A program made the translations under genes and the position numbers. Positions 8,028 through 20,000 of a stretch of DNA of 20,000 nt are shown piece after piece. The notes under the pieces were generated by a model. It was not told the origin of the DNA. It made no database searches and was given only the letters and a program-made list of their open reading frames with translations. The first letter of the stretch is position 1, and every line of letters starts with the position of its first letter. Origin of the DNA: an uncultured virus (IMG/VR IMGVR_UViG_3300043436_000999) (Duplodnaviria; Heunggongvirae; Uroviricota; Caudoviricetes); IMG/VR virus record IMGVR_UViG_3300043436_000999; one strand, 5' to 3'.

Positions 8028-8105
8028 TAGAAGGGGTGGGAGTCGAACCCACATGAGCGCGATTATAAGTCACGACCTTTTACCAAATCTATCAGGCACC
8101 CTTCC
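8028..8105 (-). tRNA. tRNA-Ile (anticodon UAU)
   Basis: Acceptor GGAAGGG/CCCTTCT with A73; D CCT/AGG with an enlarged loop; anticodon CGTGA-CTTATAA-TCGCG; T GTGGG-TTCGACT-CCCAC. Confidence 0.88.
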
Positions 8106-11007: not shown

Positions 11008-11235
11008 TCAACTTTGTTCTTCGATGTAGATGTCAACTTTGACATGGGTAGCCTTCTTTGCTTTCTTTGCGCCAAGGTACTTGGCTAAGTAGGATAGAAA
11101 CTGAGTGTGCATGAAGTCACTTGGACACATGAAACTCAATGTTACTTCTGTCTTCTTCTTGTCAATCATAGCCTTGTGAATAGACTTGACTGCTTCTTCG
11201 ATTGCCCCTTCATTATCTACGATGTGTACTTTCAA
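11008..11235 (-). CDS. hypothetical protein (75 aa)
   Basis: TTGA overlap with the RNA polymerase stop; fills the gap. Confidence 0.6.
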   Translation of the reverse strand: MKVHIVDNEGAIEEAVKSIHKAMIDKKKTEVTLSFMCPSDFMHTQFLSYLAKYLGAKKAKKATHVKVDIYIEEQS

Positions 11236-13628
11236 TGGAAGAAGTACTCACTTTCTAATACCTTGTTGATGTCAAGTGTACCCGTTTCAGGAACAGGTGG
11301 CAACTCAACACCAAGATACTTTTCTAATTGCTCCTTAAGATTTGCTAGCAGATTCTCACTGTGGAGTTCAACAAACTTGCGCTTAGTAATCTCACGCATC
11401 TTGTTTACCAGTGGAGCATGGCAACCATACGAGTCATGGATAAACGAGAAGTCTTCGATACCCTCATCTGCCATCTCACAGATGGTGTTGACCATATGTG
11501 CAGCATCGAAGGAGTGGATGACGTTTGGTGAGATACCATTCTTTGCACGTCGTGGGTGAACAGCATAGCGATCAAACTCAGCGAACAAAACTTGCCGACG
11601 CTTGACCAACGTATAGATATCAACCGATCTGTTTATCATCGGGTAGTATCGGTGACGAACAAGGAACCCAGTAGGTGTTACCCAAGCAAGGTGCTTGTTC
11701 ATTTCAGCAGCAATCTTCGTGACTTCCTTAAGCCACAACTTACCTTGGTTTGGAATCTTCAACAGATGATCCATAGCCTTGATGATATGATCGGCTAGAT
11801 AGTTAGCAGCCTTGTGTCGTTCCTTGATGTCGATGAACAACAGGTTGCCATCATTCACTAGACCGTCCACAATGCCACGCCTAGTGACACCATAAGGATC
11901 TGTCATAACAGCCCGCTTCACAACACCGCGACCAACAGATCCCTTCCAGTACTCCATAAAGATCGTTGCCCAATCATCCTTGCCAACACACGCTGCAACA
12001 CTAGCAGTCACAGACTTGGCAACAACTGAGTAAGCATCTCCTGGCTTATCTGATGGTAACAGATTAACCATAGCACCGATGACTGGATCTCTTGCAATAG
12101 CAGCCCAATGTTGGATACCATTGCATGAACCATCCATACCAATCGGAAGCTGTGTCATACCATCAGTACGAAACAACTCGAACACAGCAGCAAGACGTTG
12201 GAAGGATTGATTCTTCTTTGGCTTATCGTCTGCCCACAAACGAACCGTACCATATGGATCGTTATGGATACAGCGTAGCATATCCATGTTCTTATCCACC
12301 CATGCCACACGATCAGCGAATGGTAACTTGTCTTGGTCAAACAGATTCGCAACCTGTACCTTCAACCAATACAATCCGTCAGGTGTTTGCTTCATGGGAT
12401 TGGCAAACAACAGCAATGACTTGTCGTGATCTCCCGATTGTGGGGACAACAGATCAGACAAGGCATAGGCTCGACCACGAAAGTCGAACGTCCAACCATG
12501 ATAGAAGTATTCGTGACCAATCATGTCGTTTGCAATCTTCAATCGAAGGTGCATACGAACGGTGTCATTCAATCGTCTGAACCAATCCTTCCAGAGATTG
12601 ACCCGAATACTTTCTTCGTTTCCTGAATCAGAAAACAATTTAGGATCGGGTTCATATGATGGAAGGTTGCCAACCCTAGTGTTGTTCTCGAATAGATTCT
12701 TCATCACCTCGAACACACGTTCGTTGACACACCATTCGGTAGACATCAAACGATTAGCAGCCTCGACACACTTGGACGATGGCTCTGATCCAACATACTT
12801 AGTCTTATACGTATCGTCTTGAAAGAAGAGATACGACGATGACACAATACCCTTGCGGAGATGTGGTGAATGTGTACCACCACACTCGTTGATTGTGTGA
12901 CGTACTGGTGGAACAATCATGGGGGCATAGATAATCTTTGCCATTGCCATAAGTTCTTCATGCACGGCATTCAAGTTATCCGTGACAGAATCAGATGGCA
13001 TCAACCACGTTGTTCTGTTTCCCTTACTGTCGTAAGAGTGACGTTCAACACACAACCCTACCTTGATTAACACCTCGATAAGATGAAGACACAAGGTATC
13101 TCCATCCTTCTTTGGGATTCTGCAATCAACAGATGCACTATGTGTCTTCATAAACTGTTGCATCTGACGCTTCGTCCACTTTGTTCCAAGAGAACGTGAA
13201 GCAAGAACCCATGCACCTGAGTTGTCTGAACGTGTCTGATGGAATGTACTTGCGAGTTCAAGGTTGACACGCATATGTTTGATGACTGACTGTAACTTAG
13301 GAAGAGAGCCATCAACAAACACAAAATCCAAATACGTAGAGACAATGATAGCAGAGACAGTCCTAGATCCAAGTTTGTAGATCGGGGTAATCCAAGAAAG
13401 GTTTCTCTTAGATAACTCGCTAAGATATTCCTCAATGGCTTGTTCAGTCTTGTCTACCAGAGCATAACATAAATCTGTTTCAGGTACTCCAAGGATTCTA
13501 TTACGTTCCTTACAGTAATCCATGATAGACTTATCAGCCATTGCTTCTTCTATGACAGCATTAAGATTAAGTTTATGTTCCTTATTCTTTTCTGCTATCC
13601 ACTTCTTACCATAACAGAGATTGTTCAT
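11232..13628 (-). CDS. single-subunit DNA-directed RNA polymerase (T7 gp1-like)
   Basis: DFRGRAY, motif A MDGSCNGIQH, motif B RGVVKRAVMTDPYG, WVTPTGF, PNVIHSFDA and motif C IHDSY; C-terminal YFFH. Confidence 0.98.
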   Translation of the reverse strand: MNNLCYGKKWIAEKNKEHKLNLNAVIEEAMADKSIMDYCKERNRILGVPETDLCYALVDKTEQAIEEYLSELSKRNLSWITPIYKLGSRTVSAIIVSTYLDFVFVDGSLPKLQSVIKHMRVNLELASTFHQTRSDNSGAWVLASRSLGTKWTKRQMQQFMKTHSASVDCRIPKKDGDTLCLHLIEVLIKVGLCVERHSYDSKGNRTTWLMPSDSVTDNLNAVHEELMAMAKIIYAPMIVPPVRHTINECGGTHSPHLRKGIVSSSYLFFQDDTYKTKYVGSEPSSKCVEAANRLMSTEWCVNERVFEVMKNLFENNTRVGNLPSYEPDPKLFSDSGNEESIRVNLWKDWFRRLNDTVRMHLRLKIANDMIGHEYFYHGWTFDFRGRAYALSDLLSPQSGDHDKSLLLFANPMKQTPDGLYWLKVQVANLFDQDKLPFADRVAWVDKNMDMLRCIHNDPYGTVRLWADDKPKKNQSFQRLAAVFELFRTDGMTQLPIGMDGSCNGIQHWAAIARDPVIGAMVNLLPSDKPGDAYSVVAKSVTASVAACVGKDDWATIFMEYWKGSVGRGVVKRAVMTDPYGVTRRGIVDGLVNDGNLLFIDIKERHKAANYLADHIIKAMDHLLKIPNQGKLWLKEVTKIAAEMNKHLAWVTPTGFLVRHRYYPMINRSVDIYTLVKRRQVLFAEFDRYAVHPRRAKNGISPNVIHSFDAAHMVNTICEMADEGIEDFSFIHDSYGCHAPLVNKMREITKRKFVELHSENLLANLKEQLEKYLGVELPPVPETGTLDINKVLESEYFFH

Positions 13629-17029: not shown

Positions 17030-17259
17030 TGGTTTGCCTCCTTTAGTTGAACAACAAAGTTCAGGTGAAAGACTTCGAATGTCTCCACAACTGGACGGTA
17101 TGTCCACGTAGACACATTCTTTACACAAGTAAACTCCACGAGTGTGGTTTGAAACATCGCACACGCATATCCCTCTAGAAAGAGTCGTGCATCACGCTCC
17201 GTTTCAAATCTACCAAGATCAACGGTTGATGTATAAGTCTTCTTCTGAAGGTGGAACAT
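17026..17259 (-). CDS. hypothetical protein (77 aa)
   Basis: AAGGAG RBS; coupled to the next gene. Confidence 0.75.
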   Translation of the reverse strand: MFHLQKKTYTSTVDLGRFETERDARLFLEGYACAMFQTTLVEFTCVKNVSTWTYRPVVETFEVFHLNFVVQLKEANQ

Positions 17260-17262
17260 TTC

Positions 17263-17457
17263 TTACTCCTTGTTTGGAAAGACACAGCCAACGATTGTCA
17301 TTTCGGTTCTATCGAAGAAGTTGAATTCTGTTTCTTCGTTAGACACCTCACGACGAACCAACTCATTCTCTACTTCCAACCACGACATAGTTGGTGGAAA
17401 GTATCTAACAAACTTCTCATCGCCAAACCAAATTGTTGCAATGGCGTGATCGGACAT
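17263..17457 (-). CDS. hypothetical protein (64 aa, MSDHAIATIW...)
   Basis: GGAGGT RBS before the ATG at 17457. Confidence 0.75.
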   Translation of the reverse strand: MSDHAIATIWFGDEKFVRYFPPTMSWLEVENELVRREVSNEETEFNFFDRTEMTIVGCVFPNKE

Positions 17458-17484
17458 AGTACCTCCGTTGAAGAAACACACGAT

Positions 17485-17516
17485 GAAACGTATCGGATAT
17501 TTCACCCATACATTTC
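17485..17516 (-). repeat. GGGTGAAAT hairpin repeat, copy D (imperfect)
   Basis: Minus strand GAAATGTATGGGTGAAATATCCGATACGTTTC. Confidence 0.75.
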
Positions 17517-17646
17517 GGAACATCTCGCGGGGGATTCTAACCCCCGACATAGTACCACATACGTTGGGAAGACGTATGCGTTGCCACTAGATTATCTTCC
17601 CTTGATAATCTGTGACCTAACTATGTGTCACGACAGACCGAGTAAA
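17517..17646 (-). ncRNA. candidate structured RNA (four hairpins with two possible long-range pairings)
   Basis: Stems GTGAC/GTCAC, AGATTATC/GATAATCT, CATACGT/ACGTATG and CGGGGG/CCCCCG; complementary loops GGGAA/TTCCC; loop ACATAGT complementary to the linker ACTATGT. Confidence 0.5.
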
Positions 17647-17678
17647 GGAACGTGTGGGGTATTTCACCCACACCTTCC
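17647..17678 (-). repeat. GGGTGAAAT hairpin repeat, copy C
   Basis: Minus strand GGAAGGTGTGGGTGAAATACCCCACACGTTCC followed by TTT. Confidence 0.8.
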
Positions 17679-17682
17679 GCGA

Positions 17683-18012
17683 TTAGTTGCAGAGGAAGAT
17701 GACGGTTTCGGTTGAGTCCATCGGGAACGATTGACCACACACCTTATACTTCGGCTCAAACTTCTCCGTATAGAGACGAGCCCCAGTCCCGAACGAATGG
17801 AGAAGAGCATTCAGTCTCGACTTCGTTGTGGGAGTATTCCACCCACACAAGCACACCGACAACGCATGAGCGGCACGATGATATCGTGCGATACGATTCC
17901 CGTGCAGGAACACCTCACACCCCTTATCCGTGACTAACACCTCTGTGTTGCCACGACGGAAATACTTGTTCGAACGAACTGCGATGCACATTGCCTGTTC
18001 AATTTGACGCAT
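17683..18012 (-). CDS. conserved phage hypothetical protein (109 aa)
   Basis: MRQIEQAM...VFLHGNRIA...GWNTPTTKSRLNAL, a pattern I recognise from aquatic phage early proteins; GAGGAG RBS. Confidence 0.85.
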   Translation of the reverse strand: MRQIEQAMCIAVRSNKYFRRGNTEVLVTDKGCEVFLHGNRIARYHRAAHALSVCLCGWNTPTTKSRLNALLHSFGTGARLYTEKFEPKYKVCGQSFPMDSTETVIFLCN

Positions 18013-18346: not shown

Positions 18347-18378
18347 GAAACGTTCGGGATATTTCACCCGAACGTTCC
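18347..18378 (-). repeat. GGGTGAAAT hairpin repeat, copy B
   Basis: Minus strand GGAACGTTCGGGTGAAATATCCCGAACGTTTC followed by TTTC. Confidence 0.9.
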
Positions 18379-18479
18379 AGCGTCATTATCTTATTCATAG
18401 ATAACGCGGCACTATGAATTGCACAAACTTGGGATAACGTACAGAGAACGTAGCAGTTTGAACTACACTCAACGGGAAA

Positions 18480-18512
18480 GAAACGTTCGGGATAATTTCA
18501 CCCGAACGTTCC
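18480..18512 (-). repeat. GGGTGAAAT hairpin repeat, copy A
   Basis: Minus strand GGAACGTTCGGGTGAAATTATCCCGAACGTTTC followed by TTTC; differs from copy B by one loop T. Confidence 0.9.
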
Positions 18513-19339: not shown

Positions 19340-20000
19340 TAGGAAACTCCTAAAGAGTGAAACGAAGAGGATCGGACGATCCGATCCCACAAGTAAAGCG
19401 CAAGGTAGCACGTTAGCACTACCTTGCGTGATGAAACAAAGACAGGAACGTCGCAAGGTACGTTCCCGATGTGGAGTGTGCGTGGGAAGTGTTTAGTTTA
19501 TACTCTAGCCTATATCGCAGTTTATTTCCTAGGACTTACACACTCGACAACGGATACCCCGAAGGGTATCGGAAGGGGAGTGAGCCTAACACGCTAGCAT
19601 CGGAAAGAGAGGCACGACCTACGCCCGTTGGACGTAGGGGAATCCCTCCCGCTTTACGCGGGATGAACTTTCCTCCGCATCGCGAGTCCTCGTCGCATGA
19701 GAGGAACGCTATCGCGAGAATAGCAGAGTCTACTTCCCGCGCCTACGTTGGGGCGGTCGCATCGGCCTGAAGCGCGGGAAGGTTGGATTGTCAAAGAGTG
19801 TGGCGGTTGCCACAATAGACTGTCCCGAAGAGGGGTAAGCAACCGCAGGCTGGGTATATTTCCCGCAGGGCTGGGGGGGGGGGTAGAGGGGGACGCCAAC
19901 AACAGGTGGGGGAAGGGGGTACCCTCCTAAAATTTTCGATACCTAAAACGTTTTCTTAGAAAACCCCACCTCCCCCGTTAAGGGGAAGCGGGATAGATAG
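19340..20000. other. non-coding, GC-rich structured region, probably near the genome's left end (early leader or terminal region)
   Basis: No credible ORF; many inverted repeats, G-tracts and short palindromes; lies upstream of the first early gene. Confidence 0.55.
19399..19428 (-). promoter_or_regulatory. 13-bp hairpin with cUAACg loop (terminator or processing site)
   Basis: CGCAAGGTAGTGC-TAAC-GTGCTACCTTGCG followed by CTTTACTT. Confidence 0.6.

Follow-up and report, generated by a model that had tools for sequence, protein, structure and literature searches.

The question raised by positions 17517-17646, minus strand, of the 20,000-nucleotide (nt) sequence of an uncultured member of the Caudoviricetes (IMG/VR record IMGVR_UViG_3300043436_000999; this whole stretch is called the window) is whether the gap between two early genes encodes a folded RNA and, if so, of which kind. 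A preliminary description of this 130-nt stretch, here called the element, drew it as a row of four hairpins (P1 to P4) with a linker between P3 and P4, tied together by a kissing loop and a second pseudoknot, and likened P3 to the anticodon arm and P4 to the T-arm of transfer RNA (tRNA). The element lies in the early region of a phage genome (13.7-20 kb), since this part is upstream of the gene for a single-subunit T7-type RNA polymerase (RNAP).

In this study, the element was folded, searched for in other sequences and compared with known RNAs. It is a compact, structured and non-coding element of the minus strand that matches no catalogued RNA family (ARAGORN and Rfam), in agreement with the preliminary description, and it is best seen as one of at least four versions of a design in this phage lineage, resembling in design the RNA C of phage T4. 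The reading favoured here, in which our confidence is about even, is that of a tRNA-derived scaffold RNA with a kissing-hairpin fork, ~105-120 nt in length, encoded within the early operon of a phage from lake water. The structural class is put forward with moderate confidence, any particular function with low confidence.

Fold of the element

The minus strand of the 130-nt stretch folds at -48.4 kcal/mol compared with -32.8 ± 3.5 kcal/mol in 200 shuffled sequences (z -4.42), none of which was as stable. The value for the plus strand is z -3.79. Within a 261-nt context the element still gives z -4.13, and the centroid fold retains P2, P3, P4 and the stem b described below.

The hairpins are present on the minus strand where they had been drawn (P1, 17631-17612; P2, 17611-17589; P3, 17578-17558; linker, 17553-17547; P4, 17546-17528), as are both of the complementarities that had been pointed out, GGGAA/UUCCC and ACAUAGU/ACUAUGU. 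The doubly pseudoknotted arrangement gave way to a simpler one. In both the minimum free energy (MFE) and centroid folds, ACAUAGU (17626-17620), formerly the loop of P1, pairs with the former linker ACUAUGU as a nested stem of 7 base pairs (bp), stem b, and the partner of GUCAC is the downstream GUGGC, not the upstream GUGAC. For this nested core the calculated energy is -42.0 kcal/mol compared with -30.7 kcal/mol for the four-hairpin drawing. P1 as a hairpin was also abandoned in view of its natural variants, since only 3 bp of it are left in two of four alleles, while GUGGC is invariant in all four.

Stem b closes a three-way fork of P2 and P3 with joining strands of 3, 2 and 2 nt, P4 adjoins stem b without a spacer, and a short outer stem (CUCG/CGAG) closes the whole structure in the MFE fold. 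The perfect stems of the element are 8, 7, 7 and 6 bp long. The kissing match between the P2 loop (GGGAA) and the P3 loop (UUCCC) comprises 5 bp; the chance of at least five complementary letters between two random 7-nt loops is 0.0077 per loop pair.

Recurrence of the design in distant relatives

Among the T-arm-like hairpins in loci of this lineage, 70 of 249 lie outside the tRNAs called by ARAGORN, and those upstream of the polymerase gene were folded. Three loci (L023, L024 and L095) carry the design of the element in gene-free early gaps, in sequences unrelated to that of the window element. The order of parts is shared: inside an outer stem, a stem b that adjoins the T-arm on its 5' side encloses two inner hairpins, the loops of which are complementary, and the T-arm leads straight into the outer 3' strand. 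The loop-loop match of the preliminary description thus has counterparts, in different letters, in these three RNAs of related phages (Table 1). The small hairpin in the D-arm position has no counterpart in L024 and L095. With regard to common descent, only L023 shares letters with the window element, over the T-arm and its flank; its T-arm and 3' flank are identical in 19 of 23 letters to the allele of G001, the record nearest to the window, with one G-C to C-G swap.

In a null set of 20,000 natural 135-nt segments preceding a T-arm, a stem b with two hairpins occurred in 3.8%, loops that also matched over at least four letters in 0.4%, and loops matching over at least five letters in 0.045%. 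Given an estimated ~30 distinct orphan T-arms, the rate of 0.4% therefore predicts ~0.1 cases; four distinct types were seen. A strict scan for the architecture over 1.14 Mb returned the window-type copies, L023 and L024, with none in reversed sequence. Looser scans added L095, together with artefacts inside tandem tRNA arrays. A covariance model of the element (R1), run with filters off, aligns L023 and L024 end to end. A fitted alignment (A10), in which 23 of 35 pairs had changed on both sides and none of 500 shuffles was as good, was rejected as evidence after a control, because a 13.1-bit match inside a gene (L019 1782-1882) pairs 23 of 26 cells and the pair count is thus inflated by fitting.

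Alleles and searches for copies

Pattern scans and protein-anchored searches recovered five copies representing four alleles: those of the window, G001 and the metagenome contigs L017 (identical to G001), L018 and L019. Over a 102-nt core the alleles are 96-98% identical. Three of the changes in core stems keep pairing and one gives C.A. At the second pair of P4 the alleles carry G-C, G-U or A-U; in stem b a single G-C is replaced by G-U and no change is disruptive; P3 has a C.A mismatch in L018, and its extension has a U.U in one allele. The P2 arm including its extension and both kissing loops are invariant in all four alleles. The shortening of P1 mentioned above results from a 2-nt deletion and one further change, and in two of the four alleles the loop of the hairpin in the D-arm position is 2 nt shorter. 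The neighbouring genes form a mosaic, with 70-84% identity between alleles in the upstream gene and one of three different genes after the element.

The G-U states fit an RNA of the gene strand and not one of the opposite strand. The same substitutions bear on the idea that the inverted repeats form a recombination or replication site acting as DNA, as a recombination-prone boundary and the well folded plus strand (z -3.79) might suggest. Two of the stem changes yield G-U when read on the gene strand but C.A when read on the opposite one or in a DNA cruciform; moreover, a T-loop signature is specific to one strand and each of the four types has the orientation of the genes, so that this explanation is scarcely credible.

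Further searches widened the family little. A 351-nt query around the element found no DNA match in 50,697 phage records. A pattern anchored on the loops returned G001 only from viral contigs and three near-identical copies from metagenomes, and two pattern scans of bacterial and archaeal genomes gave no matches. A looser pattern for the P2 and P3 loops gave 36 viral loci, which were discarded as chance matches; only G001 passed the covariance model. Across 92 sources (1.2 Mb), R1 at E ≤ 10 returned the five known copies and nothing else; with filters off it gave nothing above 11.3 bits in L022, and the entire L023 and L024 records yielded no match when passed through a first-look filter. A pattern of a T-arm followed by GCGAG was likewise set aside, its 38 viral loci being 30 ordinary tRNAs, six unrelated orphans, L023 and G001. 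As a separate observation, positions 150-290 of L163, an unrelated 99-kb viral contig, hold a promoter-like TTGACA...TATAAT pair and then ~100 nt ending in a T-arm and GCGAG, a stretch that no tRNA finder calls.

Comparison with known RNAs

The likeness to tRNA (RF00005) lies in the order of the parts, namely an outer stem, a small hairpin, a long arm, a T-arm and the outer 3' strand, and in the letters of the T-arm, which has U54, U55, the purine R57, A58 and the closing pair G53-C61 and adjoins the 3' strand without a spacer. In P4, GGGGG UUAGAAU CCCCC has every T-arm feature except C56, which is replaced by A. The 17-mer of P4 is also present in a predicted phage tRNA of L002. In contrast to tRNA, the element has no 7-bp acceptor stem, no GG in a D-loop, no anticodon loop and no variable loop. 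U33 and a purine at 37 were not found in an anticodon arm, since the stem in that position, b, opens into two hairpins, and P3 could not be upheld as an anticodon arm either, given the C at its position 37 and the lack of a match to any tRNA model even at E ≤ 10. ARAGORN at default settings finds no tRNA at the element, and the Rfam search suggested in the preliminary description gave no match on the element over 351 nt, tRNA included, at gathering scores or E ≤ 10. A tRNA called by ARAGORN at relaxed thresholds (70-80%) was rejected because the calls were mutually inconsistent.

These features may also be read as those of a decaying tRNA gene that has lost its acceptor stem and D-arm, gained insertions and become functionless. 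The T-arm hallmarks, the GCGAG that follows the T-arm as in many phage tRNA acceptor strands, the degenerate outer stem, the loss of the element in siblings and the fact that the phage carries tRNAs, one of them below threshold, would all fit such a history. However, perfect stems of 8, 7, 7 and 6 bp with z -4.4 are unlike decay, the same inner design, which is not that of tRNA, occurs in three independent lineages, and the relaxed ARAGORN calls do not agree with one another; decay is accordingly considered improbable. Other tRNA-shaped RNAs that ARAGORN does not call were observed at L071 3945-4015, L082 6762-6832 and L062 1255-1335, with 7-bp acceptor stems, T-arms and odd middles, such as an anticodon position occupied by a 4-bp stem and a 5-nt loop.

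In the purine riboswitch aptamer (RF00167), two parallel hairpins of similar length leave a three-way junction and are locked together where their 7-nt loops pair. If GUCAC/GUGGC is left open, the layout of the element comes near to this aptamer, with a 7-bp stem, hairpins of 8 and 7 bp with pairing 7-nt loops, and joining strands of 8, 10 and 4 nt. A cis-acting sensor of this 'tuning fork' kind could control the next gene, since the element is upstream of a gene and the 5' strand of stem b could pair with its start-codon region (window and L018). However, neither RF00167 nor any other Rfam riboswitch matches at E ≤ 10; three unrelated genes follow the element among its alleles, and L018 lacks hairpin 4, beyond the 3' end of the element. 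Conservation of the joining strands does not extend to L023, L024 and L095, the nested fold closes the would-be pocket, the junction letters are unconserved among the four types, the loop lock of the element design consists of 4-6 Watson-Crick pairs, and its T-arm and outer stem have no counterpart in the riboswitch. A sensor is thus regarded as very improbable. The possible pairing of the 5' strand of b rests on 11 letters, GGTACTATGTC (17546-17556, minus strand; the 3' strand of b and its neighbours), which recur at 17453-17463 across the start codon of the next gene; because of this repeat the 5' strand could pair with either. The repeat occurs only with the window/L018 type of downstream gene and has a BLAST E of 0.46 within the window.

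Among self-cleaving ribozymes (hammerhead, twister, pistol, hatchet and HDV-like), no Rfam match was found at gathering score or E ≤ 10, and inspection by eye of the joining strands (3, 2 and 2 nt) gave no fit to a hammerhead core. A protein-coding function was rejected: there is a 2-nt indel between alleles, a 154-amino-acid (aa) antisense frame is broken in G001, and family searches with both overlapping frames found no match. An attachment-site copy of the 3' half of a host tRNA was also dismissed, as there is no tRNA-like match and a family search found no integrase among the 37 proteins of the window.

The closest likeness in design is to T4 RNA C (rnaC, species 1 RNA; NC_000866 70908-71046, 139 nt), a small stable phage RNA with z -4.57. 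Like the element, it has a T-arm near the 3' end, next to which the 3' strand of an imperfect closing stem begins without a gap, and its body consists of hairpins in place of the D and anticodon arms, two of which show a 6-letter match read by eye (UUGACG/CGUCAA). The likeness is one of design only, without sequence similarity. T4 RNA C lies in a tRNA cluster and the element in an early operon; T4 RNA C has the canonical T-loop UUCGAAU and a closing stem of ~7 bp with two U.U, and its hairpins leave the central junction separately, whereas those of the element share stem b. T4 RNA C has no Rfam family, its best match being tRNA-Sec at 17.5 bits; the element gives no tRNA-clan match. T4 RNA C and RNA D were described decades ago, and a review gives their roles as unknown (PMC3014915). 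At the level of titles and abstracts, a literature search did not find a published class of this design.

Flanking hairpins and loss of the element

The element is flanked by two copies of a hairpin motif with the tip GGGUGAAAUA (hairpins 3 and 4; Table 1). The conserved part of the motif is the hairpin tip GGGUGAAAUAUCCC, and the stems covary across relatives down to 38% RNAP identity; the motif is kept in the early regions of phages with RNAPs only 38-51% identical. It was also observed that the tip GGGUGAAAU(U)AUCCC stands on fully covarying stems of 8-12 bp, and that in most cases only a few bases separate the start of the hairpin from a preceding stop codon (TAATC...), while a U/C-rich run comes after it. 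Candidate roles for the motif are those of a terminator, a 3'-end stabiliser, a processing site or a protein-binding site. The notion that the motif hairpins are promoters of the N4 type found no support, since the 4007-aa protein of G001 matches no RNA-polymerase family.

The element is optional. In L011 and L012, the polymerases of which are 100% identical in the best segment, it is absent and one hybrid hairpin stands in its place, to which hairpin 3 contributes the left arm and hairpin 4 the right, a clean difference of 162 nt. Recombination between the flanking copies would remove the element cleanly in this way. Hairpin 4 is missing in L018, and L022 has a motif hairpin without the element. 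Seven close-clade loci cover the site and five have the element, a biased proportion because three of the five were found by searching for it. More generally, copies of the motif were seen to mark breakpoints of cassette gain and loss.

The PeSL (promoter/stem-loop) cassettes of T4-type phages are described as short conserved intergenic motifs with a stem-loop, repeated among small non-essential early genes, between copies of which recombination creates indels and swaps cassettes (PMC2839356, PMC4122927). The flanking hairpins alone show a likeness to them, in that the 162-nt gap lies exactly between two motif copies and neighbouring genes are swapped; they differ in that no sigma-70-like promoter is found beside the motif hairpins and in that the phage genome is of a podovirus type with a T7-like RNAP and not T4-type.

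The surroundings of the element speak for a more ordinary explanation, namely a hairpin-rich spacer of independent stem-loops (message stabilisers, pause or stop signals, or cutting sites) with no specific tertiary fold, in which P4 is a worn motif hairpin and the loop match is due to chance. The window contains 25 matches (~23 distinct) to perfect hairpins of at least 7 bp compared with 8.5 in shuffles, 11 of them in the early region, where 11 terminator-like sites stand against 3.7 expected; because the early region is hairpin-rich in general, the cluster at the element is unsurprising by itself. A second strongly folded, gene-free gap lies between hairpins 1 and 2, P4 shares UGUCGGGGG...CCCCCG with hairpin 1 of G001, which the covariance model aligns to the T-arm, the element is dispensable, and the loop match has a probability of ~2% over three loop pairs. 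It is difficult for a spacer to account for the same ordered design with canonical T-loops in three sequence-unrelated relatives, at a chance of ~0.4% per T-arm, for the alignment of the T-arm and flank of L023 letter by letter with P4, or for a stem b at 0-3 nt from the T-arm in all four types. This explanation is therefore considered unlikely, and yet it is the one to be taken most seriously beside a tRNA-derived scaffold. The second gap (18385-18470, minus strand) holds three further stem-loops; with its flanking hairpins it gives z -6.5, has no match in the fetched loci and is absent from G001 and L012.

Genomic setting

The genes of the window are all encoded by the minus strand and, besides that for the RNAP, include those for a T7-type primase-helicase, a family A DNA polymerase, ThyX, RusA and an exonuclease. 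The RNAP is at most ~33% identical to those of cultured phages in the collection, and many uncultured relatives of it occur on 60-70-kb contigs. Public sequencing runs that contain the element stretch are lake-water metagenomes. G001 (64,204 bp) is 97.6-98.3% identical to the window over the replication genes and more divergent in the early region. The stop codon of the upstream early gene is 4 nt before hairpin 3; the 64-aa product of the downstream gene matches no protein family in Pfam or PHROG. A promoter scan found no sigma-70-like promoter on the minus strand near the element. Two lake metatranscriptome runs gave only depth-2 contigs, within 17067-17537 (two of them cover 17258-17537), and no contig over 17538-17650.

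ARAGORN calls two tRNAs in the window, both away from the element. A further tRNA-like gene was noted at 8033-8101 (minus strand) beside tRNA-Leu, with a G1.U72 end and an anticodon loop reading CUUAUAA (UAU). Its 25.7 bits fall short of the Rfam threshold of 29, ARAGORN misses it, and its T-arm recurs in L011-L014, L020, L026, L028 and L029. At 19368-19468 and 19860-19960 (minus strand), three consecutive terminator-like hairpins directly precede the first early gene (ATG 19337), and the window has long C-rich runs towards its end that perhaps mark a genome terminus. In G001, a 4007-aa open frame (45403-57426; L098 5403-17426) stands just before the early end of the genome, and its product has no match in PHROG, Pfam or solved structures, nor to any RNA polymerase.

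Table 1. Locations of the element, its parts, its surroundings and the related RNAs
Feature	Location	Strand	Sequence or description	Basis
Outer stem, 5' strand	17639..17642	minus	CUCG, acceptor-like; pairs with 17524-17527	MFE fold
Small hairpin, D-arm position	17627..17638	minus	GUC-UGUCGU-GAC	MFE fold
Stem b, 5' strand (former P1 loop)	17620..17626	minus	ACAUAGU	MFE and centroid folds
Fork arm 1 (P2)	17583..17616	minus	AGAUUAUC / GAUAAUCU, loop AAGGGAA, with GUCAC/GUGGC extension	Sequence and MFE fold
Fork arm 2 (P3)	17556..17580	minus	CAUACGU / ACGUAUG, loop CUUCCCA, with CG/UG extension	Sequence and MFE fold
Stem b, 3' strand (former linker)	17547..17553	minus	ACUAUGU, runs straight into P4
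P4, T-arm-like hairpin	17528..17546	minus	CGGGGG UUAGAAU CCCCCG
Outer stem, 3' strand	17524..17527	minus	CGAG, directly after T-arm as in tRNA
Hairpin 3, motif copy	17647..17678	minus	GGAA-G-GUGUGGG, loop UGAAAUAC, CCCACAC-G-UUCC	Motif search; terminator-like call
Hairpin 4, second flanking motif copy	17485..17516	minus		Motif search
Hairpins 1 and 2, further motif copies	~18470-18510, 18347-18378	minus
Motif copies in relatives	L022 4548-4590; L024 1880-1915; L030 1410-1450; L074 830-870; L075/L076 1460-1500
RNA of the same design	L023 1700-1815		RNAP 50%; after hairpin and UUU(C); outer stem CCUCG/CGAGG; b 7 bp, gap 2-3 nt; loops UAUGGUG and UCGCCAU (AUGG/CCAU, plus G.U); T-arm CACGGG UUUGAUU CCCGUG
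RNA of the same design	L024 1912-2030		RNAP 51%; after motif hairpin and UUU(G); outer stem 6 bp; b 9 bp, gap 0 nt; loops UAAAGCG and UUGCUUG (AAGC/GCUU, plus G.U); T-loop UUCGACU
RNA of the same design	L095 1300-1445		RNAP 38%; outer stem 10 bp; b 6 bp, gap 0 nt; loops UUACAG/CUGUAA (6 pairs); T-loop UUCGAUU
Single-subunit T7-type RNAP	11232-13628	minus
Upstream early gene	17683..18012	minus	109 aa; PHROG 554, unknown function	Pfam PF23790 Kyano_Gp96, E 3.5e-23
Downstream early gene	17263..17457	minus	64 aa; GGAGG before ATG 17457

Discussion

As a tRNA-derived scaffold, the element would keep the outline of the cloverleaf, with the outer stem in the acceptor position, the T-arm followed by the outer 3' strand, and stem b in the position of the anticodon stem. 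The RNA cannot decode, because stem b opens into a two-hairpin fork and there is no anticodon loop. It would be transcribed within a long early message that continues past hairpin 3. The stack of outer stem and T-arm, 10 bp in the window and 11, 13 and 16 bp in the three relatives, could serve as a handle for host enzymes that recognise the top half of tRNA, such as RNase P or RNase Z, and cleavage next to hairpin 3 would then release a stable RNA with the locked fork as its working part. Possibly, the locked fork may act as a decoy for tRNA-directed host factors.

A number of findings weigh against this reading. The stacked handle varies between 10 and 16 bp and is not a fixed 12 bp. The outer stem measures only 4 bp, in place of the 7 bp of a tRNA-type acceptor stem, and its last pair is broken in two of the four alleles, leaving 3 bp. 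ARAGORN at default settings and Rfam at E ≤ 10 give no tRNA signal here, although the marginal tRNA of the window scores 25.7 bits. The window and G001 are 96% identical over the element compared with a genome background of 97-98%, and therefore there is no sign of special constraint. The covariation among homologs that the preliminary description had looked to did not emerge from the close copies, the pair counts of which have no statistical power (259 and 250 of 500 shuffles were as good). L023, L024 and L095 are each a singleton among the loci, the thresholds of the strict scan were chosen after L023 and L024 had been seen, and the R1 scores of 16.2 bits for L023 and 11.3 bits for L024 are at noise level. 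P4 resembles the phage's own motif hairpin (UGUCGGGGG...CCCCCG in G001), and because R1 aligns the motif hairpin to the T-arm position, an origin of P4 from that hairpin stays alive.

A broader proposal, which is speculative and rather doubtful at present, is that several phage lineages make an uncatalogued class of tRNA-derived RNA that combines a handle of T-arm and closing stem with a kissing-loop fork. T4 RNA C would be its first member and the present element its early-operon version, and such RNAs, expressed as infection begins, would occupy or misdirect a host enzyme directed at tRNA, for example a processing enzyme or a tRNA-cutting defence nuclease.

If the spacer explanation is right, the locus would be just an ordinary hairpin-rich spacer. 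If tRNA-framed kissing-fork RNAs recur in unrelated phages, they would form a class open to comparative study. Natural siblings with the element (window and G001) and without it (L011 and L012) exist, as do four sequence-independent versions, and the hypotheses on the loop lock, the T-arm and processing are thus directly testable. Furthermore, since tRNA finders and Rfam miss RNAs of this kind, the 'intergenic' gaps of phages may hide many more of them.

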